NCBI GenBank assembly: GCA_020353515.1
Contig: CP070695.1
Span: forward strand, 2,969,231 to 3,033,230
DNA from: Candidatus Heimdallarchaeota archaeon
Lineage (GTDB): Archaea > Asgardarchaeota > Heimdallarchaeia > Hodarchaeales > Hodarchaeaceae
Direction of reading: 5' to 3'
DNA length: 64,000 nt
Part shown: one piece after another, positions 2,855-15,417 of the stretch
How positions within the stretch are numbered: the first letter of the stretch is position 1
Layout of the letters: each line of letters opens with the position of its first letter
Notes under the pieces: generated by a model
The model's database searches: none
What the model was told of the DNA's origin: nothing
Seen by the model: only the letters and a program-made list of their open reading frames with translations
Position numbers and translations under genes: made by a program

Positions 2855-5107
2855 TTATATAGCTAAAATCTCATCTTTCGACATTTCAGAGATTTTTACC
2901 CAAATTTTTTCTAGTTCTGGTAAAATTTCAGAAATATTTTTTACATTTCCATCAATGATTTTCTGAGCTAGAGAGTCAAGAATTTCTTTCATGTGGTCTG
3001 ACATTTCTGTGGTCTTTTCTTGATCATCATTTAAATCTTTCAATCTCATTTTTATACTACGATGCTCCTGTTCCAACCCAAAGATTTCTGGGAATTGATC
3101 TTTTAATAAATTTAATATGGAATTTTGAATCTTGAGATTTACTTCATTAAAGACTCTTTTTAAGACAATTTCATTGAAATAAAGAACTCTCTCAGCATGT
3201 AACCGAACTTGTCTTTCTCTTTTCAGAGCTTCTTGATGTTCTCTTTCAGCCACTTTCATTGCTTCGATACGTTCTTTTTCCTTCTTTATTACGAGATCAA
3301 TCCTATCAGTAACAGATTCATCAGTGGAGGAAACACCGAACGACTTACTAATATCTCCTGACAACCAAAGGCTTCCTGGTTCATATAGACTCTCTACAGT
3401 TGCACGAGTAATATAATTCTCCAATTTTGCTGCTCGAGCATCAGCCATTGATTTAATCCTTAAATCTGTTAATAATTGGTTAATTTTACTAAAAACCTGC
3501 CTATGTTTCAATGATTTTGCTTGGTACTCTAATGAGGCTTCATTTTGACAAAGAAGTCCAACTAGTTTTGATTCATCACTTGAAAAAAGAATAGACAAAT
3601 TTTTACCAGGATAATTTTGAAGCTCATAAAGGAATTCCACAGGATGAAGACTTATTTCAAGGTTTTGGTCATTTTGGAGTAATATTAACCTAAAAACATT
3701 CGAACAATGATCAATAATGATTTTTATGTGATCCAACAAGCGTTCTGTTTGATCTTTGCTAATCATACTAGATTTAATGCCAAGAGTATCCATTCGTTTA
3801 GACGTGATAGACTTAGGTGAGTCTAGTAACATTTCAATGATTGTTTGCTGTTTATCTTGCTTTAGAAGACAAACAGGGATAAAACCCTGCTCACGTAGCT
3901 CATCTTTTAATTCTAGGAAATTATATTCTTCTTGTAAATTGTGGATATACATTTCCATCCAAGCTGATGATAATATTTTCATGTGTTCAACATCAATGTC
4001 ACCTTGAACGTTTAAACGACTTAAAATCCCTCTAATATCTAGACAACGTTGTTTAGAATAAGAAATAATTGATTGTAGATTTACATTTTGTTCTGAGAGC
4101 ATCAAGTAGTTCCAATTTCCTAGTGTGTTTGAATGACCATTATCAGATTGTCTTTCCTCAAAGTTATGGATATAGAAGAACCTTTCTTCTGGCCTTTGGT
4201 TAGGAATCCTAATTTGAACATGAAATTTGGCAAAAAGCAATTGATAAGGGTTATCAGGTCGACTTGATGTATGATTAAGATAGAGAGAATTCTTCAATTC
4301 TTCCTCTAAGAGTTCCAGAATCTCTTTGGAAACTATCTGTTCATCATAAGTAATAGGGGAAAATAACTCTCTAGAGGTTGTGTCATAAAAAACGGAAGTA
4401 GCAAATTCATATGAACGTCTACCAATATCACCAAACGATTCTAGTTCTTTTACATCATCGAACTTTCTAGTAAAATAATTTTCAACAAATGGGCAGATAA
4501 CAAAAAATCCTGCATCAAAAAAGACTAAAGGATCCATTTTCTCAATAGAAAAATTAGATTTAATATCTTCAAAAAATTCTGAAGCAAATCCTTTATTTAA
4601 AGCACCAGCTAACTCTGCCATTGCCCATCTCAAATCTAAGTTGGGAACCACTTCTTTTAAGAATGAAAAGAACGAAACCGCATATATATCAACTAGATTG
4701 GTCATGATTACTTTTGGATTCACTATTAAACGAGCGTGAGTAACTAAATCTTTCTCTATCTTAACTGCCCAATCATAAAGAAGGGAATATACATGTACGA
4801 GAGACTCAAAATCCATTGTCAGATGTTTCTTAGCCTCGATGAGATTTTCTAGCACAACTTTGACTCGGTCATCCTCATCGACCTTATCTCTTGCTTCTTT
4901 ATCTCGTTTTAGTTTGTCCATGACATAATTTGCAAGGTAAAAGGCAGATACAGCTGTATCAATGTCTGTATGGTATGAACTTGCCAAGTTTTGTAAAAGT
5001 TCATCGTACATAACTTTATACGTACCAAAAATTTCTAGAACATTTCTCCTTCTCTCTAAAACGCCTTTGAGCTCATCAATTAAGGACATACCGTATTCGA
5101 CGGCCAT
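2855..5107 (-). CDS. Large hypothetical protein, helical, with C-terminal coiled coil
   Basis: 750 aa ORF, GGTGA RBS, KKEKERIEAMKVAEREHQEALKRERQ coiled coil; no recognised motif. Confidence 0.8.
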   Translation of the reverse strand: MAVEYGMSLIDELKGVLERRRNVLEIFGTYKVMYDELLQNLASSYHTDIDTAVSAFYLANYVMDKLKRDKEARDKVDEDDRVKVVLENLIEAKKHLTMDFESLVHVYSLLYDWAVKIEKDLVTHARLIVNPKVIMTNLVDIYAVSFFSFLKEVVPNLDLRWAMAELAGALNKGFASEFFEDIKSNFSIEKMDPLVFFDAGFFVICPFVENYFTRKFDDVKELESFGDIGRRSYEFATSVFYDTTSRELFSPITYDEQIVSKEILELLEEELKNSLYLNHTSSRPDNPYQLLFAKFHVQIRIPNQRPEERFFYIHNFEERQSDNGHSNTLGNWNYLMLSEQNVNLQSIISYSKQRCLDIRGILSRLNVQGDIDVEHMKILSSAWMEMYIHNLQEEYNFLELKDELREQGFIPVCLLKQDKQQTIIEMLLDSPKSITSKRMDTLGIKSSMISKDQTERLLDHIKIIIDHCSNVFRLILLQNDQNLEISLHPVEFLYELQNYPGKNLSILFSSDESKLVGLLCQNEASLEYQAKSLKHRQVFSKINQLLTDLRIKSMADARAAKLENYITRATVESLYEPGSLWLSGDISKSFGVSSTDESVTDRIDLVIKKEKERIEAMKVAEREHQEALKRERQVRLHAERVLYFNEIVLKRVFNEVNLKIQNSILNLLKDQFPEIFGLEQEHRSIKMRLKDLNDDQEKTTEMSDHMKEILDSLAQKIIDGNVKNISEILPELEKIWVKISEMSKDEILAI

Positions 5108-5226: not shown

Positions 5227-7332
5227 TTATCTCAGAAGCCTTAATGAGTTCAGTACCGTCAAAATTGTAACGCCAACGTCCCCAAACACAGCAGCCCACA
5301 TTGTTGCAAGCCCCATAGCTCCCAAAAGAATGAAGATTGCCTTTATACCTAAAGCCAAAACAATATTTTGTTTTGCTAATCTGTTTGTCTTTTTGGCGAT
5401 ATCTATGGCATCACTTAATTTTGAAGGATTATCTTCCATGATAACTAAGTCTGCTGCTTCAATAGTAGCATCTGAACCGATACCACCCATTGCAACTCCG
5501 ATATCTGCTCTTGCAATAACTGGTGCATCGTTAATTCCATCTCCTACAAAAATAACGGCCCCAACTCCATTTTTCTTGTAGATATATCTTTCCAAAATTT
5601 CTAATTTATTTAAAGGCATTAAATTGGCATATATTTCCGATTGATCTATTCCTAATTCTTTTCCAACTCTCTCTGCAACATTTTTACTGTCACCAGTTAA
5701 CAAACCAATATTTAAGATACCTTGAGACTTCAATCTCTTAACTGCTTCATAAGAGCTGGTTTTAATCTGATCATCGATAATAATATGACCGATGTACTCC
5801 CCATTCCTTATTACATAAACAGCAGTCTCATCACGAATGCATTCTGAATGAGGACAATTTACTTTATGAGTCAGTTTATCATTTCCCACAACGATCGATT
5901 CATTAGATTTTGTCTTCATCATTATTCCTAAAGCAGGGAGCTCTTCATATTCCTCAATCTGTGTTAAATCCACTTGTTTTCCATAAGCCTCACGAATCGA
6001 AGCTGCAATGGGGTGTGTAGAATGCGCTTCTGCAAGTGCCGCATAGGCAAGAATATCATGAGGGCTGTAATCTGGGATTGGTACTATTGTTATCACTTTA
6101 AACTTACCTACAGTCAATGTTCCCGTCTTATCCCACAATACGGTTGATACTTCATTGAGTGAATCAATCACATTAGCACCTTTCAGTAGAATTCCCTCTC
6201 GTGAACTCTTACCAATTCCGGAAAAATAAACTAACGGGATTGAAACAACTAAAGCACAAGGGCAGGAGATGACTAGAATAACAAAAGCACGATACACCCA
6301 CACATCAAAGGCTTGTCTGAATAATAATGGGGGAATTATTGCAATGAAGAGAGCTAATAAAAGAACCAACGGAGTGTAGTAACGAGCAAATCGAGTGATG
6401 AATAATTCCGTTTTAGATTTATTTTTAGCTGCATTTTCAACAGCATTCAAGATTCTTGAAACTGTAGAGTCATAACAGGGAGATGTTACCTGAATGTGAA
6501 TACTGCTACTTGTTATTGAACCTGAAAGAACTTCATCGTCTTCTTTTACAACTACAGGTCGGGATTCCCCAGTCAGAGTCGTCATATCTAAGTTTGAATG
6601 TCCTTTTACAATCTTTCCATCTAATGGAATTCGTTCTCCTGGTTTTACTAAAATGATATCATCAGGTTTTACTTCTGCGATGGGAACAGTTGTGATGCTA
6701 TCTGCAACAACAAGGTGAGCTTGATCTGGCCGTATATCCAACAGAGAACCAATTGATTGTCTTGAATGATTAATTGCCTTGGTCTGTAAGTATTCTCCTA
6801 TTGTGTAAAAGACCATGACAGCTACAGCTTCAGGTATTTCCTGAATTATAATTGCTCCAATGGTAGCCACAGACATCAGGATATACTCATTTGTAAAATC
6901 ATAGTTTCGTAACTGAAGAATCGCATTTTTAAGTACTTTCCAACCAGCGATGAAATATGCGAGAAAAAAAGACATATAACCAGTCAATATGACTTGTTCT
7001 GTCATTGAGGGATTTGTTAGCACGATTCCAAGTCCAAGAAGCAGTAAAGAAACAGTGATTCGAACAATTGCGATCCAATTCCTGTCTTGTGGTTGATCCA
7101 TGGTTATCTCAGGAAAAGCCTGAGCTCCTGGTTCAATTTTTGAAATGATCGCATTAATCTCTTTTGAATGAGAATCACATTTTTTCTCCCCACAACTAAA
7201 AGTAAGCACTCTTGTGGCAAAGTTTAATTGGACGTCTGCGAAATTTTGATCTTTTAGTGTATTTTCTATCTTAAGCGCACAATTCGCACAGCTTAATCCT
7301 TTGATGGAATATTTATGGACATCCTGCCCCAT
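5227..7332 (-). CDS. cadA: Heavy-metal (Cd/Zn/Pb) P1B-type ATPase
   Basis: GLSCANC HMA domain, TGES, SCPCAL, DKTGT, HP, GDGINDAP. Confidence 0.93.
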   Translation of the reverse strand: MGQDVHKYSIKGLSCANCALKIENTLKDQNFADVQLNFATRVLTFSCGEKKCDSHSKEINAIISKIEPGAQAFPEITMDQPQDRNWIAIVRITVSLLLLGLGIVLTNPSMTEQVILTGYMSFFLAYFIAGWKVLKNAILQLRNYDFTNEYILMSVATIGAIIIQEIPEAVAVMVFYTIGEYLQTKAINHSRQSIGSLLDIRPDQAHLVVADSITTVPIAEVKPDDIILVKPGERIPLDGKIVKGHSNLDMTTLTGESRPVVVKEDDEVLSGSITSSSIHIQVTSPCYDSTVSRILNAVENAAKNKSKTELFITRFARYYTPLVLLLALFIAIIPPLLFRQAFDVWVYRAFVILVISCPCALVVSIPLVYFSGIGKSSREGILLKGANVIDSLNEVSTVLWDKTGTLTVGKFKVITIVPIPDYSPHDILAYAALAEAHSTHPIAASIREAYGKQVDLTQIEEYEELPALGIMMKTKSNESIVVGNDKLTHKVNCPHSECIRDETAVYVIRNGEYIGHIIIDDQIKTSSYEAVKRLKSQGILNIGLLTGDSKNVAERVGKELGIDQSEIYANLMPLNKLEILERYIYKKNGVGAVIFVGDGINDAPVIARADIGVAMGGIGSDATIEAADLVIMEDNPSKLSDAIDIAKKTNRLAKQNIVLALGIKAIFILLGAMGLATMWAAVFGDVGVTILTVLNSLRLLR

Positions 7333-7337
7333 GTCGA

Positions 7338-7700
7338 CTACTCTCCACCTACAGGATGTACTTTAAGATGTTCCAATGCATTTTCTAAAATTGGTTCTAA
7401 GTGCTCAATTTCAAGTGAATAATAATTTTCCTTGCCCTCACGACGGAATTTGACAAAGTTCCCTTCTCGAAGTTCCTTCAATTGATGAGAAATTGCTGAA
7501 GGAGATAATCCTAAGATTTCACTAAGATCACAAACACATAGTTCAGTCTCAAGTAATGCTAAAAGAATCCTAATCCTAGTTTCTCCAGAAACCATTCTAA
7601 AAAATTTAGTTAATTTGGTGGGATTTGATTCATCAATCTTTTTACGAGCATATGCTATCTGTTCAGGATGAATTTCGATTGTTTTACAAGGTTCAACCAT
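7338..7700 (-). CDS. ArsR/SmtB (CadC-like) metal-responsive repressor
   Basis: ELCVCDL..SAISHQL; 5 bp upstream of the ATPase. Confidence 0.92.
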   Translation of the reverse strand: MVEPCKTIEIHPEQIAYARKKIDESNPTKLTKFFRMVSGETRIRILLALLETELCVCDLSEILGLSPSAISHQLKELREGNFVKFRREGKENYYSLEIEHLEPILENALEHLKVHPVGGE

Positions 7701-7752
7701 TGGTAACCAAACTCTTAGGAATAAACTCTATCTAAGAAGTTATTAACAATAG

Positions 7753-7871: not shown

Positions 7872-8468
7872 TCAAATATTCCCTAAATTGTATTTTTTCA
7901 ACTCTTGGGAGATTTTTGTCTTCACACCAGCTGTTATTTCTTCCTGCCACGTTTTTAATAGCGAAAATATGACCCCATGATGTTCCATACGCTTCAATCC
8001 GATCTCATGTTCAATGTTATTCCTGGAAAAGGTCATATCCGTTAGAATAACAACTAGAAATCCATGGGATTGAAGATCAATTGCAGTTTGGGCAATACAC
8101 ACATCAGTTTCAAAACCACAAAGTACCGCTATCTGACGGTGGGTATTTCTAATTGCTACTTGGATATCTCTCTGGCCCCAGCAACTATAAACATATTTAT
8201 CAAAAATTTTAGTGTTTGAGGGGAGTGTATCTAGAAATATGTCTGGTAAGGACCCATTCTTCTTGATATCTTCAGCTGTGATAATGAGAGGGATATTCAA
8301 GACGCCAGAAAGTCTAATCAGATGTGTAAACTTTTGTAAAAAGATTAACTGCTCTTTGTTTGTTATCCCTTTCATGAATGTTGATTGGACATCAATAATC
8401 ATGATAAAACAATTATCAACTTCAATTAATTCTGAAGAACGAGAAACAGGTTCAAAATTTTCTTCCAT
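7872..8468 (-). CDS. Isochorismatase family cysteine hydrolase
   Basis: IIDVQ, K..YSCW, GFETDVCIAQTA (Asp-Lys-Cys triad). Confidence 0.9.
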   Translation of the reverse strand: MEENFEPVSRSSELIEVDNCFIMIIDVQSTFMKGITNKEQLIFLQKFTHLIRLSGVLNIPLIITAEDIKKNGSLPDIFLDTLPSNTKIFDKYVYSCWGQRDIQVAIRNTHRQIAVLCGFETDVCIAQTAIDLQSHGFLVVILTDMTFSRNNIEHEIGLKRMEHHGVIFSLLKTWQEEITAGVKTKISQELKKYNLGNI

Positions 8469-8577: not shown

Positions 8578-8712
8578 GTGATTCTCATTCAAACCTATCA
8601 AGAGCTCTATTATGCCTTAAAAGTCCTTCAGTTATTAAAAGAAAGTGATAAACTGTTATATGAAAGACTCTATGAACAAATTACAGACCAAATTGAGAAA
8701 CTAATTCAATGA
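8578..8712 (+). CDS. Putative 44-aa small helical protein (not in ORF track)
   Basis: AAGGAG RBS, GTG start, MILIQTYQELYYALKVLQLLKESDKLLYERLYEQITDQIEKLIQ. Confidence 0.45.
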   Translation: MILIQTYQELYYALKVLQLLKESDKLLYERLYEQITDQIEKLIQ

Positions 8713-8975
8713 TCAGTCTGAACTAATTCGTTTTAGAGTTAAACGATTTGATCTTACATAGAAATCTCACCTAGTATGAAATTCATCTGAAATGTCATTG
8801 CAATACATTGCTTATTCAGAGTTGTTTAAATTGATTCGATTATATTAATAAAACATACAGAAATAAATACGTGAAATCAATCAAAAATCGGAGATAATAC
8901 TCCTTTCTGGTTAAATCGTTCTTCCAACATATTTATTTTTACCTGATCATTTCTATAGGAATTTGATGTGATTCT

Positions 8976-9656
8976 ATGGATTCCTGTCCAATATCCGAGC
9001 TCGTAATAGTACATGATTCTGGTCTACCAGTTTTTGCATGGTTAAATCCTTTAAAAAAGGATATTGCCACGGGTGTAGCAAACCCTGAGTCTCGAGATCT
9101 AATGAGTGGCCTTTTTACTGCAATTCTTACCATGTCTGAAGATATTTCGGAAACCGCGGCAATAAAATCGATTAAAATGCTTCGTTCGACTTTTAAATAT
9201 GCCATAAAAGAGAAGCTAATTTTCATCCTTGGTTATGATTCTACTGCATCTATTGCACAGGAACCACTTGTAGATTCCTTTTTATCTGATATAATTAACG
9301 ATTTCTCAAAACAGTATTCTGATTATATAACAGATGACATGTTACTTGATGGAGACGTATTTGTAAACTTTTCATCTTATATGGAGAAGGGTGTCACTGA
9401 TCCACGTTGGAAAATCGAACAAACTGAACAGGAAATGCTTGATCATATTCATGAGCTCCTTTTAGATATTGTCGGTCCTATAGGAACTGAAATGTTTGAT
9501 AGTAATCTACGAAAACAAACACAATATCGAAGAAGGCGTAGTGCTGACCTTCCTCAATTAGCAAAAGATCTTGTTTATGAAATGTCATTATTAATGGATC
9601 CAGCTCAAGCAAAGCAAATCGGAGATGAAATTCAAAGTATTATCCGGTCAAGGTGA
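8976..9656 (+). CDS. Longin-like domain protein (Asgard type) with C-terminal helical domain
   Basis: ELVIVHDSGLPVF / DLMSGLFTAI / IKSIKM..FKY..LIFILGYD beta-beta-alpha-beta3-alpha pattern typical of Asgard longin-like proteins. Confidence 0.7.
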   Translation: MDSCPISELVIVHDSGLPVFAWLNPLKKDIATGVANPESRDLMSGLFTAILTMSEDISETAAIKSIKMLRSTFKYAIKEKLIFILGYDSTASIAQEPLVDSFLSDIINDFSKQYSDYITDDMLLDGDVFVNFSSYMEKGVTDPRWKIEQTEQEMLDHIHELLLDIVGPIGTEMFDSNLRKQTQYRRRRSADLPQLAKDLVYEMSLLMDPAQAKQIGDEIQSIIRSR

Positions 9657-9662
9657 GATTCT

Positions 9663-12050
9663 ATGAAACCTGAGTATGGATTATTATTATGTAAATGTCG
9701 TGGGGAAATCGATAACCAGATTAAGCTAGAAGAATTAGCGAATGTCTTTGAAACTGATCCTAGAATAATGTTTACTCATATTAGTGAATCTCTTTGTGAT
9801 GCTATTGAGAGAAGAAATATTCAATCACTCTTAAGAAGATATAAACCAGCAGGTATAGTTATAGGGGGGTGTTCTCCTCGATACTATGAATCTTATTTTC
9901 GAACTCTAATTGAAAAAGCTGGAGGAAATGCTGGAAGGTTAGCTTTTGCCAATATAAGAGAACAGATTGCTTGGATATACAAATTTGAATCAAAAGAATT
10001 CCGAGACGAAAAAGGAAAATTAGCAATTGAAGTGGCTATTAGTTCACTTGATGAGGCTCATGACTTTCTTGTTACAAATGTAAAAATAAAGAAGAATATT
10101 GCCATTATTGGCGCTGGTATTGGTGGAATTCAAACAGCACTTAGCATTGTTAAATCTGGTACAGACACAGAAATTCACCTAATTGAGAAAGCACCTTTCA
10201 TAGGGGGAGATCAATTGAAATACTCAAAGGCTTTTCCACGAGATGAATGTTCTGCATGTGCAATCTCCCCGCTGATTTCAGAGATTTCTTCTTATCCAAA
10301 CATCAAAGTTCATACAAACACAGAAATTGTTGAATGTGTTGGTCGGGTAGGAGACTATAACATTTCAATGATACAACATCCTCGGTATGTAACTGATTCC
10401 TGTACTTCCTGTGGAACCTGTAGTTCTGTTTGTCCAGTTGAGATAGTTGAAAATAATGGGGCAGAAAGCCATAAAGCAATTTATCTCCCATTTGCAGGGA
10501 CGATTCCTAATAGATTTACTATTAATGAATCTGAAATAGCTTATTGTCGGAGTGATTGCGATCAGCCATGCGTTGCAAGCTGTTCAACTAATGCCATCGA
10601 TCTACTAGCATTTCCCAAAGAAGAAAAATTAAATTCTGGGGCCATAGTACTGGCTACTGGTGCTTCTGTTCATGCCCCACAGGTTGGAGAGAATGAATTT
10701 GGCTATGGTACATTACCAGACGTGTTAACTTTAGATCAGTATGAAAAGTTACTTGCTGCCACCAGTAAATGGAAAGGAGAAATTAAATTACAATCAGATG
10801 ACACAAAATCTCCTGAATCTGTGGCTTTTATCTTATGTGTGGATAGACAACAGATTGGATATTGTAGTAAATATTGTTGTTTAAGCACTGCTACTGCCGT
10901 AAAACAGACAGTAGAAAGATTACCAAACGCTAAAATTTATATTTTTTATCAAGATCTCTTTTCAGACTCAAAATTTGGCGATGATTACATAAAATTCACC
11001 CAAAAACTTTCTAACGTGGAATGGATTCGTACCACACCTCGTGTGAAGACAAAAAATGATAATTCACTTATCTTAGATGTTCCTGTATCAGGGGGAAGAA
11101 TTGATATCCCAGTGGATATGCTTGTTTTAGCAACAGGAATAGTACCATCAAAAGATAGTCCAATTATGCGACATATTTTCGGTTTAGATTCATCGAAAGA
11201 AGGATTCTTTAGTGAATTTGATTTACTTTTCAGTCCAGTGAGTACGAATGACCTAGGGAAGTTTCTAGTAGGATCAGTTGTAGGTCCAAGAACCATTCCA
11301 GAGACAACCATCTCTGCTTTTGCAGTAGGTTCACAGATTTTAAATTTGTTGAACAGAGGAAAAATCCCCTTACATATCTCAGTTACAGAGGTTGATAATG
11401 ATCTTTGTTCAGGATGTGGAGTTTGTGTCAAAACGTGTCCTTATCATGCAAATACTATCGATGAAAAGAATAAAACTGCAGTAGTAGATATTAGCCGTTG
11501 TAGAGGTTGTGGCAACTGTGTTGTTGCATGTCCTGCTAAGGCACGTGATTTAATAGAGTATCCCGAGTTAGCGATTCGAAAAGCTATTGATCTATTAGGA
11601 AACAGCGCCTTGATCAATAGAAGGGAGGTGAATATGCTTGCTTTCTTATGTAATGGTTGTGGTTATCCAGTAGCAGATAATGTTGGTCTTTCTGGAGCAG
11701 GTTCTACATATTCAAAGAACCTATCGATAATTCGAGTCCCTTGTTCTGGAAGGGTCGACCCAAGACATATTCTCCACGCTTTAACATTGTTCGATGGAGT
11801 TATGGTTGGAGCATGTAAGTTGCATAGTTGCCATTTCTCTGTTGGTAATTTTGATGCTCAAAAACGAATTTTTTTATTGCAGGGAACAATGGATACTGCC
11901 TCTATCGATCCAAAAAGATTGAAAATCGATTATTTTGCTCCAACGGACACTAATAAGTTTTGTCAAAGCGTAACAGATTTTGAACGTGAATTGAAAATAG
12001 CAAAAGAAACTGAAATGCAGTTAGAAAAGACAGTAGAAACGGAGGTCTAA
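9663..12050 (+). CDS. hdrA: Heterodisulfide reductase subunit A fused to C-terminal MvhD domain
   Basis: CKC, GCSPR, GAGIGG FAD site, DECSAC, ferredoxin CxxCxxCxxxCP motifs, YCSKYCC; C-terminal FLCNGCGY..RVPCSGRVD..GAC..CHF..GN (MvhD). Confidence 0.9.
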   Translation: MKPEYGLLLCKCRGEIDNQIKLEELANVFETDPRIMFTHISESLCDAIERRNIQSLLRRYKPAGIVIGGCSPRYYESYFRTLIEKAGGNAGRLAFANIREQIAWIYKFESKEFRDEKGKLAIEVAISSLDEAHDFLVTNVKIKKNIAIIGAGIGGIQTALSIVKSGTDTEIHLIEKAPFIGGDQLKYSKAFPRDECSACAISPLISEISSYPNIKVHTNTEIVECVGRVGDYNISMIQHPRYVTDSCTSCGTCSSVCPVEIVENNGAESHKAIYLPFAGTIPNRFTINESEIAYCRSDCDQPCVASCSTNAIDLLAFPKEEKLNSGAIVLATGASVHAPQVGENEFGYGTLPDVLTLDQYEKLLAATSKWKGEIKLQSDDTKSPESVAFILCVDRQQIGYCSKYCCLSTATAVKQTVERLPNAKIYIFYQDLFSDSKFGDDYIKFTQKLSNVEWIRTTPRVKTKNDNSLILDVPVSGGRIDIPVDMLVLATGIVPSKDSPIMRHIFGLDSSKEGFFSEFDLLFSPVSTNDLGKFLVGSVVGPRTIPETTISAFAVGSQILNLLNRGKIPLHISVTEVDNDLCSGCGVCVKTCPYHANTIDEKNKTAVVDISRCRGCGNCVVACPAKARDLIEYPELAIRKAIDLLGNSALINRREVNMLAFLCNGCGYPVADNVGLSGAGSTYSKNLSIIRVPCSGRVDPRHILHALTLFDGVMVGACKLHSCHFSVGNFDAQKRIFLLQGTMDTASIDPKRLKIDYFAPTDTNKFCQSVTDFERELKIAKETEMQLEKTVETEV

Positions 12051-12052
12051 TA

Positions 12053-12943
12053 ATGGCTAAAAATATTACAGTAGGTTATGCTGCATTGACTTCTTGCTCT
12101 GGATGTGAGATAGCATTATTGGATATAAATGAAAAAATCTTGGATGTCTTAAAAAATGCAGAATTAGTATATGGGCCCCTGATCATGGATGCTCGGGAAG
12201 TCCCTGATAATATTGATTTGCTATTTGTTGAAGGTTCTGTATCAACTGATCACGATTTACAGCAAGCACAAGAATATAGGAAAAAAGCTAAATACCTTGT
12301 AGCTGTTGGTGCTTGTGCTTGTTTTGGAGGGATCCCAGGTATGAGAAACTTTTTTGAGAGAAACGAAATTCTTGCCGATGTTTATCCCTTGAAAGACAAA
12401 TCAGAATTTTTAGGGCCAACACAATTATCTTCAAAAGTTCAAAGCTTACCAATGGTTGTAAAAACTGATTTTTTTGTACCAGGATGTCCCCCTTTACCAG
12501 AAAACTTTTTAACAGTAATTCAGAACTATCCTAATTTCGATCGCATCAAACTTCCTACTAAAACATTATGTGCTGAATGTGATCTGAACAAAGATAAGTT
12601 ACTATCACCAATAAGAGAATTTACTTCCTTAAAGATTAAGAACCCCTACCATTTCAATGAAGAGGAAGAAAATTTATGCTTTCTTGAAAGAGGAATCTTG
12701 TGTATGGGTGTAGCTACTCGAGCTGGTTGTGGGGGACGATGTGTCAAGGTTAGTGTCCCTTGTCGTGGTTGTTTTGGGCCCCCTCCTCAGGAAGGATCAG
12801 AGGATCAAGGAGCTGGTGTAATATCCGCTATTTCTTCTATATTACCTACAGGACGATTATTAACAAAAGAGGACATGCTTGGGCTCGTTTACCGATATTC
12901 TCTTTCAGTTATTACCGACCTACAAAAGTATTTTCATGAATAA
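12053..12943 (+). CDS. mvhG: [NiFe] hydrogenase small subunit (MvhG-type)
   Basis: SCSGCE, GACACFGGIPG, PGCPP, CAEC, CFL..CMG..CGGRC..CRGC. Confidence 0.9.
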   Translation: MAKNITVGYAALTSCSGCEIALLDINEKILDVLKNAELVYGPLIMDAREVPDNIDLLFVEGSVSTDHDLQQAQEYRKKAKYLVAVGACACFGGIPGMRNFFERNEILADVYPLKDKSEFLGPTQLSSKVQSLPMVVKTDFFVPGCPPLPENFLTVIQNYPNFDRIKLPTKTLCAECDLNKDKLLSPIREFTSLKIKNPYHFNEEEENLCFLERGILCMGVATRAGCGGRCVKVSVPCRGCFGPPPQEGSEDQGAGVISAISSILPTGRLLTKEDMLGLVYRYSLSVITDLQKYFHE

Positions 12944-12956
12944 GGAGAGACGATAA

Positions 12957-14414
12957 GTGTCATCAACAAGAAAAATCACAATTGATCCAGTTACCAGACT
13001 GGAAGGAAATGCAAAAATCACATTCGAGCTAGATGAATCAACTAACGTCTTGAAGAAAGCAGAATTTCAAGTTTTAGAATTCAGAGCTTTTGAAAAATTT
13101 TTGGAAGGAAGAAAAGCCCGAGAAACCCCTCGAATTACTCCTAGAATATGTGGTATCTGTCCTGTAAGTCACCACCTATGTTCTGCTAAAGCGACTGATA
13201 TGCTCGCGAGAGTAATAATCCCTGGGCGGGCTAAATTACACCGTGAATTAATGCATATGGGGCAATTCATACATTCACATTCCCTTCATGTGTATTTTCT
13301 TGCATTACCAGATTTTGTAGATGGTTTTAAAGCTGAAAGCAATGATTTCCGACTACTACTTAATGCAAATCCAACTTTAGTAAAGAATGTCATTAGGATT
13401 CGTGCTTTTGGTCAAAAAGTGATCGAAATTCTTGGTGGAAAAGCAATTCATCCTGTTACAGCGATTCCTGGGGGTATTTCGGTTCCTCTTAAAGTAGCTG
13501 AACACGAGGCATTACTGAATGAGGCAAAAAAACTGCTTCCAATTACTGAAGAATCATTAACAGCAGCTTGGGGATTATTAGACTGTGTACCAGAGGAACT
13601 CAAACAATATGAAACACTAAACTCCCATAATATGGGAACAGTTGGAAATAACAAAGAAATTGCGCTCTATGACGGCGAAACGGTTATTTTGGATTCAAAT
13701 GGTAAGGTTAAAGGAAATTTTAGGGGAGCTAAATATCGAAAAATGATAAGTGAGAAGTATTTCGATTTCTCTTGGACGAAATTTCCTTATTTCATTAATG
13801 CGGAAGATGAAGAAGATGCCATCATCCAAGTTGGACCTCTAGCTCGTCAAAAATGCTATGAAACGATATCCACTGAAAAAGCAGGTAAAATGCTAGCTAA
13901 TTTTCGTCAAAGATTTGGTCGCTATACAACTGAAAGCTATTCCACCCATTATGCCCGAATAATTGAAACCATGTATGCTCTTGAGAAAACAATAGATATC
14001 CTAGAAGATCCTAATTTAATGAAGGATACAGATTATAGAATATCCTCAACAATTAAAGAATCATCAGGCGTGGGTATTGTCGAAGCACCCAGAGGATCTT
14101 TGATTCATTCCTTTCAAACTGATCAAAATGGCTTAATTACGAAAGCAAATATCATTGTATCAACAACGTTTAATAATCCAGCAATTAATCTAGCATTATT
14201 CAAAGTGGCCAAAAAACAACTTGATCCCAGCCAAAAATCAATACCAGAATCAACATTGAGGCAGATAGAGTCAACAGTAAGGATTTTTGATCCGTGCTTG
14301 ACTTGTTCTTCTCACTCCCTTTCAGGAACTAATTTTGACATCGTTTTACGGAATACTGAAGGTGAGTTGATCTACTCTAGTTTGGTTGCTTCAAGAAACA
14401 GTAGTTTAAAATAA
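12957..14414 (+). CDS. mvhA: [NiFe] hydrogenase large subunit (MvhA-type, group 3c)
   Basis: IDPVTRLEG, L1 RICGICPVSH, EAPRG, L2 DPCLTCSSH plus cleavable C-terminal tail. Confidence 0.92.
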   Translation: MSSTRKITIDPVTRLEGNAKITFELDESTNVLKKAEFQVLEFRAFEKFLEGRKARETPRITPRICGICPVSHHLCSAKATDMLARVIIPGRAKLHRELMHMGQFIHSHSLHVYFLALPDFVDGFKAESNDFRLLLNANPTLVKNVIRIRAFGQKVIEILGGKAIHPVTAIPGGISVPLKVAEHEALLNEAKKLLPITEESLTAAWGLLDCVPEELKQYETLNSHNMGTVGNNKEIALYDGETVILDSNGKVKGNFRGAKYRKMISEKYFDFSWTKFPYFINAEDEEDAIIQVGPLARQKCYETISTEKAGKMLANFRQRFGRYTTESYSTHYARIIETMYALEKTIDILEDPNLMKDTDYRISSTIKESSGVGIVEAPRGSLIHSFQTDQNGLITKANIIVSTTFNNPAINLALFKVAKKQLDPSQKSIPESTLRQIESTVRIFDPCLTCSSHSLSGTNFDIVLRNTEGELIYSSLVASRNSSLK

Positions 14415-14490: not shown

Positions 14491-14964
14491 GTGTTTAAAA
14501 TGGTTGAAATTGATCATGGATTTACAACTGATATGAAGTATGCTGTCGCAGGCACCTTTAGCGGTGGTCTTTCCAGTAAAATCTATCCTTTACTTAAAAA
14601 CGAATGGTACAATGTCAAAAAGGTCTATCCTGTATGTCCTGACAAGAAAGACGTTGATGGTGACACCACTTATGCATCCCTCAAAGATTTACCTGAACCA
14701 GTTGATGTTGTTGTTGTTGTTCATAAGAAGGAAATAACAACAGAAATTGTTAGGGAAGCCTCAACATTAAACCCAAAACCAAGTATATGGTTCATGCCAA
14801 GAACAGATTCAAAGGAAAGCATCATAATATGCGAAGAAAATGAAATGAAATATGGTATGTCGTGTCTTATGGGCCACAGAGCGATTCCTGGTATCAAGCG
14901 TTTTATCAACGGTCACTGGTGGCATTCGAAAGTTGGTGGAATGAACCAAATTCCTAAACAATAA
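14491..14964 (+). CDS. CoA-binding domain protein
   Basis: VYPV..YASLKDLPEPVDVVVVV..IWFMP; likely start at ATG 14500. Confidence 0.8.
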   Translation: MFKMVEIDHGFTTDMKYAVAGTFSGGLSSKIYPLLKNEWYNVKKVYPVCPDKKDVDGDTTYASLKDLPEPVDVVVVVHKKEITTEIVREASTLNPKPSIWFMPRTDSKESIIICEENEMKYGMSCLMGHRAIPGIKRFINGHWWHSKVGGMNQIPKQ

Positions 14965-14988
14965 GTTTTTCCAAATGGAGAGTACTAC

Positions 14989-15417
14989 TTGAAGATCTTA
15001 ATCGTTTATTATTCTCAATCTGGAAATACTAAAAAAGTCGTAGAAATGGCTGAAGAACGGTTAAAAGACCTCCACCATGAGGTAACCGTAAAAAATGCTT
15101 TGACTGTAAAGCCTGAACAAGTATCAGATTGTAACTTGTTACTTATTGGCACCCCCGTTCATGGTTATATCTTATTTGGTCAGAAACCTACAAAAGAGGT
15201 CAATGAATTTTTAGCAAATCAATTGCCACAGGATCTTGAAAATAAACCTGTAATTGGTTTTGCTACTTATCTCTTCTTTCCTGCAGGAGCATTAAATCGC
15301 ATTAAAAAGGCAATAGACGCACAAAATGGCAATTTACTGGGATTAATAGCACAAAGAAGGTCAAAGAAGACTGAACTTGTTAATGAAATAATAGAATGTA
15401 TTGAGGATTCATTTTAG
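14989..15417 (+). CDS. Flavodoxin-like protein
   Basis: YYSQSGNTKKV FMN loop, LLIGTPV. Confidence 0.85.
   Translation: MKILIVYYSQSGNTKKVVEMAEERLKDLHHEVTVKNALTVKPEQVSDCNLLLIGTPVHGYILFGQKPTKEVNEFLANQLPQDLENKPVIGFATYLFFPAGALNRIKKAIDAQNGNLLGLIAQRRSKKTELVNEIIECIEDSF

Follow-up and report, generated by a model that had tools for sequence, protein, structure and literature searches.

The window analysed here is a stretch of 64,000 nucleotides (nt) from Candidatus Heimdallarchaeota archaeon (GCA_020353515.1, CP070695.1, positions 2,969,231-3,033,230, forward strand), and coordinates are given within it unless a locus of a relative is named. It contains a unit of four genes on the plus strand, in which a gene for a longin-like protein stands ahead of the genes of a [NiFe] hydrogenase module. 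The first gene (8976..9656) encodes P0001, a protein of 226 amino acids (aa) with a predicted N-terminal longin domain and a C-terminal four-helix bundle. It is followed by an hdrA-mvhD fusion (P0002, 795 aa, 9663..12050), by mvhG for the [NiFe] hydrogenase small subunit (296 aa, 12053..12943), and by mvhA for the large subunit (P0004, 485 aa, 12957..14414). The identities of these three genes, which the initial annotation had read from the sequence, were confirmed by profile matches and motifs. P0002 matches NCBIfam HdrA2 (E 7e-165) and Pfam FlpD (E 1.4e-31), and its MvhD (FlpD) domain spans residues 659-778 in the Pfam match (11637-11996, plus strand). MvhG matches VhuG (E 9e-63) and Oxidored_q6 (E 3.7e-32), and MvhA matches VhuA (E 2e-97) and NiFeSe_Hases (E 1.9e-40). 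The HdrA motif C-x-x-R...CSKYCC and the GAGIGG loop for flavin adenine dinucleotide (FAD) can be read in P0002, as can the Ni-binding motifs RICGICPVSH and DPCLTCSSH in P0004.

The four genes are tightly packed and co-oriented behind an intergenic gap of 507 bp, described earlier as about 500 bp, that separates them from a divergent isochorismatase gene (7872..8468, minus strand). The junction between the longin gene and hdrA is also as first described: the stop codon TGA (9654-9656) lies within a Shine-Dalgarno-like AGGTGA (9651..9656, plus strand), and the hdrA ATG at 9663 follows after six bases (9657-9662). The two further gaps, between hdrA-mvhD and mvhG and between mvhG and mvhA, are 2 and 13 bases long. 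Loci of relatives carry L-numbers here and Asgard genomes carry G-numbers, G000 being the window's genome. By identity to P0001, the relatives fall at 88-90% (L102, L103, and L104), 54-73% (L001-L004), 40% (L049), 22-26% (L006-L009), and 22% (L047). The longin and hdrA reading frames overlap by 11 bp in L001 and by 32 bp in L002, and gaps of 4-10 bp separate them in L003 and L103. The independent promoter ahead of hdrA that the initial annotation had considered thus finds no room, as the 6-bp gap and the overlaps of 11-32 bp in relatives leave no space for an intergenic promoter. The longin gene and hdrA-mvhD are probably translationally coupled.

The linkage is kept in every relative that we found. 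In a search of 1.8 billion proteins, the longin-bundle family comprised 12 clusters at 90% identity, with 8 representatives at 50%, and all members with a source name were labelled Asgard (Hodarchaeales and one Thorarchaeota). The longin gene lies directly 5' of hdrA-mvhD in every contig that reaches past it, and mvhG and mvhA come next wherever the contig extends far enough, an arrangement that holds down to 22% identity. Among 400 Asgard species genomes, the full-length longin-bundle family was found only in G000, G076, G045, G046, and G229, and these same five are the only ones with an HdrA-MvhD of more than 40% identity; the matches to HdrA-MvhD in 261 other genomes are paralogues at 36% identity or lower. 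In the surroundings of 20 paralogous hdrA loci (about 2.5 kb upstream and 6 kb downstream), the hidden Markov model of the family gave no match at E 0.01 or better, in a search that would miss a longin that has diverged very far. At least eight other longin-like matches are present in the window's genome, and the longin paralogues inspected in relatives of this genome stand in unrelated gene contexts. The longin protein and HdrA-MvhD also follow the same rank order of divergence from the window, with identities of 73/77, 64/74, 56/66, 40/61, 22-26/44, and 22/41% for longin and HdrA-MvhD, respectively. The distribution spans at least three families, one of them in a different class; with 5 of 400 species genomes and several metagenome contigs it is narrow, which limits the generality of the finding. 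This patchy spread, together with block-wise conservation, suggests that the four genes move as a module. They form one unit, inherited as a block and apparently exchanged between Asgard lineages.

The initial annotation had recognised a longin-like pattern in the N-terminal half of P0001, and structure prediction and profile searches agree with it. An AlphaFold2 model built with 12 homologues (predicted local distance difference test (pLDDT) score of 79.6) places a domain at residues 1-147 (8976..9416, plus strand) with the order strand-strand-helix-strand-strand-strand-helix-helix; the DSSP assignments are E6-13, E18-23, H40-53, E64-67, E71-78, E81-88, H93-117, and H130-140. The predicted model has longin topology, with no helix ahead of the first strand and two helices after the sheet. 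In VIA-align searches, the best match was the VAMP7 longin domain (4afi_B, Z 13.2, root-mean-square deviation (rmsd) of 2.5 over 122 residues), followed by CPLANE (7q3d_C, Z 12.3) and the longin domain of the Lokiarchaeal Roadblock-Longin protein (8yqg_B, Z 12.0), with TRAPP, adaptin, and SRX chains at Z 10-11. The 29 best of the 50 best matches are all of longin type (Z 9.8-13.2); roadblock-type chains start at rank 30 (Gse1p, Z 9.8), and those of MglB/LAMTOR type score Z 8.4-9.0. Foldseek agrees: 36 structures matched with E values of 1e-3 or lower, and Sec22b (E 4e-5), VAMP7, and TRAPP stood at the top. At the sequence level, the signal is spread over several longin-type Pfam families (PF13774, PF19031, PF04099, and PF04086 were considered). 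P0001 reaches only a sub-threshold match to Intu_longin_1 (E 0.024, 15.3 bits against a cut-off of 23.7), and the NCBIfam scan of P0001 gave no family. When members were searched singly, Longin PF13774 was matched by 4 of 13 (best E 4.7e-5), Intu_longin_1 by 6, SRP-alpha_N by 3, and Sybindin by 2. The profile of the longin-bundle family found TRAPP Bet5 among PDB sequences (E 2.7e-4). Beyond the family itself, the sequences closest to it belong to Asgard longins of about 150-160 aa that stand alone (E 1e-15 to 1e-19). The assignment of the N-terminal domain as a longin, a prediction from the model, is well supported.

Two related identities were considered for the protein and rejected. It is not of roadblock/LC7 type, as the model opens with strand 6-13 and closes with two helices, and roadblock chains score below longins. 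It is not a longin SNARE either, as Pfam gave no Synaptobrevin match, the C-terminal part consists of four short helices in a bundle, and there is no membrane segment.

The C-terminal part is a domain of its own, found by a separate domain model and a domain-profile search at residues 150-226 (9423..9653, plus strand). The full-length model places four further helices within residues 151-224, and the region modelled alone reached a pLDDT of 82, with 81-94 in the bundle proper. It carries the conserved motifs L-x-D-x-x-G-x-x-G and M-D-x-x-Q-A and a basic inter-helix loop, RKQTQYRRRR. The helical domain and its VGPIG motif were already noted in the initial annotation, and G167 is invariant across the longin-bundle family. 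The likeness to domains attached to roadblock/MglB proteins, which the initial annotation had also proposed, did not survive, since no structural or profile match bears it out. Among 48,161 chains, VIA-align found generic helical bundles, AAA lid domains, and bromodomains (best Z 7.4); Foldseek found nothing below E 1, and an Atlas feature search with residues 125-226 gave no usable match. Searched against longer proteins among 5.8 billion sequences, the bundle profile recovered only the same family of 212-230 aa, which identifies the bundle as a private domain. A domain shared with roadblock/MglB proteins is therefore rejected, as the profile finds only its own family and no structural match is specific.

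The composition of the protein narrows what it can do. P0001 is acidic (isoelectric point (pI) 4.6, with 4.4-6.0 across the family), and both domains are net negative. Family members have 0-3 cysteines, none of them conserved family-wide, and the family alignment contains no conserved Cys or His able to handle metal. The maximum hydropathy over 19 residues is 1.1-1.5, so there is no membrane segment, and Pfam scans of the longin-bundle protein found no helix-turn-helix family. An acidic protein with no conserved cysteine and no hydrophobic segment is not an electron carrier, a membrane protein, or a likely DNA binder.

The hydrogenase module itself has the features of MvhAGD-HdrABC, namely, HdrA with FAD and Fe-S motifs, MvhD, MvhG, and MvhA with its [NiFe] site. 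Its HdrA2 score is 550 bits against a curated cut-off of 1100, and all module scores are far under the NCBIfam equivalog cut-offs, which marks the module as a divergent, distinct subtype. No hdrB, hdrC, or CCG-domain gene was found in the module in any lineage inspected. None of the 27 CCG matches in the window's genome falls within the window; one lies immediately 5' of another hdrA at 1.53 Mb, and HdrBC encoded elsewhere in the genome may serve the module. This other hdrA belongs to a cluster of canonical order in the same genome (G000:C1:1527761-1533857; L096 1761-7857), which consists of a CCG-domain HdrB-like gene (387 aa), hdrA, mvhD, mvhG, and mvhA. Its hdrA stops at an in-frame TGA directly before mvhD, which could reflect selenocysteine read-through or two separate genes, and its HdrA is 32% identical to that of the window. 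Where the canonical cluster has its CCG-domain HdrB-like gene, the unit in the window has the longin gene.

In the most distant Hodarchaeales-labelled lineage, a second longin-bundle paralogue lies head to head with the hdrA-linked copy (6988-7710, minus strand, in L006-L008; 8001-8657, plus strand, in L009). This paralogue pair suggests a heterodimer and fits the habit of longin domains of working in pairs.

We propose, with a probability of about 0.5, that the longin-bundle protein, soluble and cofactor-free, is a non-catalytic accessory or adaptor subunit dedicated to the HdrBC-less HdrA-MvhD/MvhG/MvhA hydrogenase. From the reading frame, the predicted fold, synteny, co-occurrence, co-divergence, and the absence of redox and DNA-binding features, we infer that the protein would bind the enzyme, dimerise, and act as an adaptor. 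By analogy to all characterised longin domains, its longin domain would pair with a second one, contributed by another copy of the same protein in the window's lineage and, where the lineage has two copies, by the protein that the divergent paralogue encodes. Such a pair would offer a docking surface, and the family-specific bundle would grip the hydrogenase/flavoprotein or its partner and confer specificity. The enzyme would thereby be tethered, positioned, or gated, with no electrons carried by the longin-bundle protein. Several points weigh against this proposal. The most distant lineage has a gap of 245 bp to hdrA, so tight coupling is not universal. No prediction made here shows contact with any of the hydrogenase subunits. 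To our knowledge, no longin domain is a subunit of any hydrogenase or Hdr complex, and our literature search agrees. Finally, a maturation factor or a regulator would account for the gene linkage just as well. When HdrA-MvhD (residues 1-772) and the longin protein were predicted as a complex, the interface score (ipSAE) was 0.00 in both runs, which we count neither for nor against binding.

A maturation factor would be a dedicated assembly chaperone that holds MvhA or HdrA-MvhD before cofactor insertion or C-terminal cleavage and is no longer part of the enzyme once it is mature. Many [NiFe] hydrogenases have private chaperones encoded in their operons, and the strict co-inheritance and operon position of the longin gene are consistent with such a role. 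MvhA carries a C-terminal extension of about 31 residues past DPCLTCSSH that would need processing, and there is no protease or hyp gene within the module. However, no known Hyp, Hup, or Hya accessory protein is longin-folded, none is among the 50 best structural matches, and the protein has none of the conserved Cys or His residues that metal handling would call for. The same genome and related ones also have paralogous mvh clusters that do without a longin-bundle protein, and we consider the chaperone role unlikely.

The protein could instead be a platform for small GTPases, acting in nucleotide exchange, GTPase activation, or docking, as in TRAPP, Mon1-Ccz1, FLCN-FNIP, GATOR1, and SRX-SRbeta, and coupling the nucleotide state of a Ras/Arf-like GTPase to the hydrogenase. 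Nearly all characterised longin-domain complexes bind small GTPases (reviewed in PMC10933270), and the best match at the sequence level is to TRAPP Bet5. The window's genome contains 58 Ras-family matches, Ras/Arf-type genes adjoin the module on its upstream side in L001, in divergent orientation, and on its downstream side in L002, and hdrA-mvhD-hdrC-hdrB of another Asgard genus has a Ras-family gene immediately in front of it. Nevertheless, the 64-kb window has no GTPase gene, the nearest being 70 and 94 kb off, and none was found near the module in L003, L006-L009, L047, L102, or L103. A GTPase neighbour at 2 of 7-9 loci corresponds to the chance level at this gene density (P ~0.24-0.35). 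The family extends from 93% to 22% identity and keeps 17 invariant columns, and its alignment contains no invariant Arg; R70 is invariant in the close group and replaced by Glu or Asn in distant branches, so that an arginine finger is not apparent for the family as a whole. Longin-type GTPase-activating subunits (FLCN, NPRL2, and SMCR8) combine a conserved catalytic Arg on the longin domain with a paired small GTPase, and the module has no GTPase neighbour that is conserved. The signalling link between a small GTPase and H2/redox metabolism that the initial annotation had put forward is therefore unsupported, with no GTPase gene in the window and adjacency elsewhere at chance level, and a GTPase platform appears improbable.

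In the genus with the Ras-family gene, represented by two species, the GTPase gene is directly upstream of and co-directional with hdrA-mvhD (L098 1825-6570, in G100:C2; L100 1519-4840, in G099:C23), and in L098, hdrA-mvhD is followed by hdrC and hdrB.

We judge it quite improbable that a longin platform is an integral subunit of an electron-bifurcating-type Asgard hydrogenase and ties its activity or location to a small GTPase or another cue. If this were true, the protein would provide an archaeal precedent for the links between metabolism and signalling made by Ragulator, FLCN-FNIP, and GATOR1, and in this case the link would concern H2 metabolism, in a lineage near the ancestor of eukaryotes.

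A regulator would sense a ligand and act on the transcription or translation of the operon and not on the enzyme. SCOP places longin in the profilin-like fold class, together with the GAF and PAS sensor domains. The longin gene comes first in the unit, the bundle has a conserved basic loop, and a conserved non-coding block lies upstream. This block, TTATT[C/T]AGAGTTGTTTAAAT (8822..8842, plus strand), about 135-150 nt 5' of the longin ATG, is invariant in an alignment of the intergenic regions of the window and three relatives with longin proteins 88-90% identical, and as read from this alignment it is a candidate TATA-like promoter or operator element of the four-gene unit. Nonetheless, the protein is acidic, both of its domains are net negative, and Pfam finds no helix-turn-helix in it, and a DNA-binding regulator is rejected on these grounds. 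The best structural matches of the bundle are generic (Z 7.4 or lower), those of the N-terminal domain are all longins and not GAF or PAS domains, and a ligand-sensing regulator seems very unlikely. Adjacency without functional meaning, with an unrelated Asgard longin gene beside a hydrogenase operon, would draw on the dozens of longin/roadblock genes per Asgard genome given in 10.1101/2020.10.19.343400 and on the further longin-like matches in the window's genome, but it is already strongly disfavoured by the one-to-one pairing of the two genes, seen in 5 of 400 genomes that span at least three families, by a position kept in all loci while the outer flanks change, by overlapping frames, and by the shared rank order of divergence.

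Further sequence in the region upstream of the longin gene is conserved. The four related loci share the invariant non-coding stretches AAATCAATCAAAAAT and CTCCTTTCTGGTTAAATCGTTC at 8860-8925 (plus strand), and together the invariant blocks sit 50-150 nt ahead of the longin start codon. On the strength of sequence conservation, they may represent a promoter/operator or a structured leader of about 110 nt. A scan for sigma-70 promoters and terminators stayed at background level, a type of scan that is uninformative for an archaeon. Between the isochorismatase and longin genes lies a small open reading frame (ORF) of about 44 codons (8579-8713, plus strand) with a GTG start and an upstream AAGGAG; relatives have a gene of 43-44 aa in the equivalent position (L102 8587-8721; L104 573-704), and the four-locus alignment shows conservation of this stretch.

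Downstream of mvhA and on the same strand, the window encodes a CoA_binding_2 protein (157 aa) and a flavodoxin (142 aa) at 14491-15417. The CoA-binding gene is near the module in the close relative L102 and not in other lineages, which places both genes outside the conserved core, and in the flanks of the relatives' loci no gene other than the four is conserved across lineages. On the minus strand, an ORF of 750 aa without a Pfam match (2855-5107) adjoins genes for a P-type ATPase and an ArsR regulator, and its position is kept in L102 and L103 (739 and 749 aa, no Pfam match).

The association of a eukaryotic-signature fold with an enzyme of energy metabolism is thus real and conserved, and it is undescribed in the literature that we searched. 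Full-text searches on longin/Asgard/hydrogenase and on Hodarchaeales/hydrogenase/HdrA returned no description of a longin-hydrogenase linkage. A comparative-genomics study of Asgard lists some 130 orthologous groups of roadblock/longin proteins along with numerous lineage-specific fusions, none with redox enzymes in the passages of that source where longin is discussed (10.1101/2020.10.19.343400). A preprint on the isolation of Hodarchaeales reports clusters in which NiFe hydrogenase genes are accompanied by FrhG-like and by HdrA or HdrB-like genes, and it does not mention longin (10.1101/2025.02.26.640444). According to a structural survey of Asgard GTPases, roadblock proteins, and longins, these genes are generally not in operons with partners (PMC10933270). 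As Asgard longin/roadblock genes are seldom in operons with their presumed GTPase partners, their function is hard to infer; the proteins are numerous, and hardly any has been assigned a partner in the cell. One longin family now has an unambiguous conserved genetic partner, the HdrBC-less HdrA-MvhD/MvhGA hydrogenase, and its role can be directly tested.

Compared with known systems, the longin-bundle protein combines a known fold with a new domain partner, the bundle, and a new genomic context. The Asgard longin/roadblock proteins, among them the asCOG Roadblock/LC7 superfamily and the roadblock proteins 7f8m and 9jue, come from the same phylum, and its longin fold matches that of the Roadblock-Longin protein 8yqg, with 8yqg_B at the Z score given above. 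Like other Asgard eukaryotic signature proteins, it reflects lineage-specific domain shuffling, as described in 10.1101/2020.10.19.343400. The longin fusions reported for Asgard involve GTPase, roadblock, TRAPPC3, DENN, NPRL2-C, and two-component domains (10.1101/2020.10.19.343400; PMC10933270), whereas the protein in the window has a private bundle and a link to a redox operon.

The eukaryotic trafficking longins (VAMP7/Sec22b/Ykt6, TRAPP Bet5/TRAPPC1, sedlin, the sigma/mu adaptins, and SRX of SR-alpha) share the fold predicted for residues 1-147, with a fit of Z 10-13.2 and rmsd 2.5-3.4 over about 120-130 residues and a profile likeness to Bet5 that is weak but specific. Unlike the longin SNAREs, the protein has no SNARE motif, membrane anchor, or lipid-anchor site. 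It also differs from the trafficking longins in its private four-helix bundle and in its genomic partner, which is a hydrogenase and not trafficking machinery, and no link to a GTPase was found. Roadblock/LC7 proteins (MglB, LAMTOR2/3, and dynein light chain), which dimerise and serve as platforms for GTPases or for partner-protein helices, share a related core sheet and central helix. However, they have an N-terminal helix before the first strand and no extra C-terminal helix, whereas the model of P0001 has the longin arrangement (PMC10933270).

On the side of the enzyme, the module shares with methanogen MvhAGD-HdrABC and Methanosarcina HdrA2 an HdrA-MvhD fusion with Fe-S and FAD motifs, and its MvhG and MvhA are, like Vhu/Mvh, of the F420-non-reducing type with intact Ni-binding motifs. 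Unlike MvhAGD-HdrABC, it is without hdrB and hdrC and has a non-redox longin gene at its first position. An extra non-redox subunit of this kind could explain how HdrBC-less HdrA-Mvh complexes dock to their partner.

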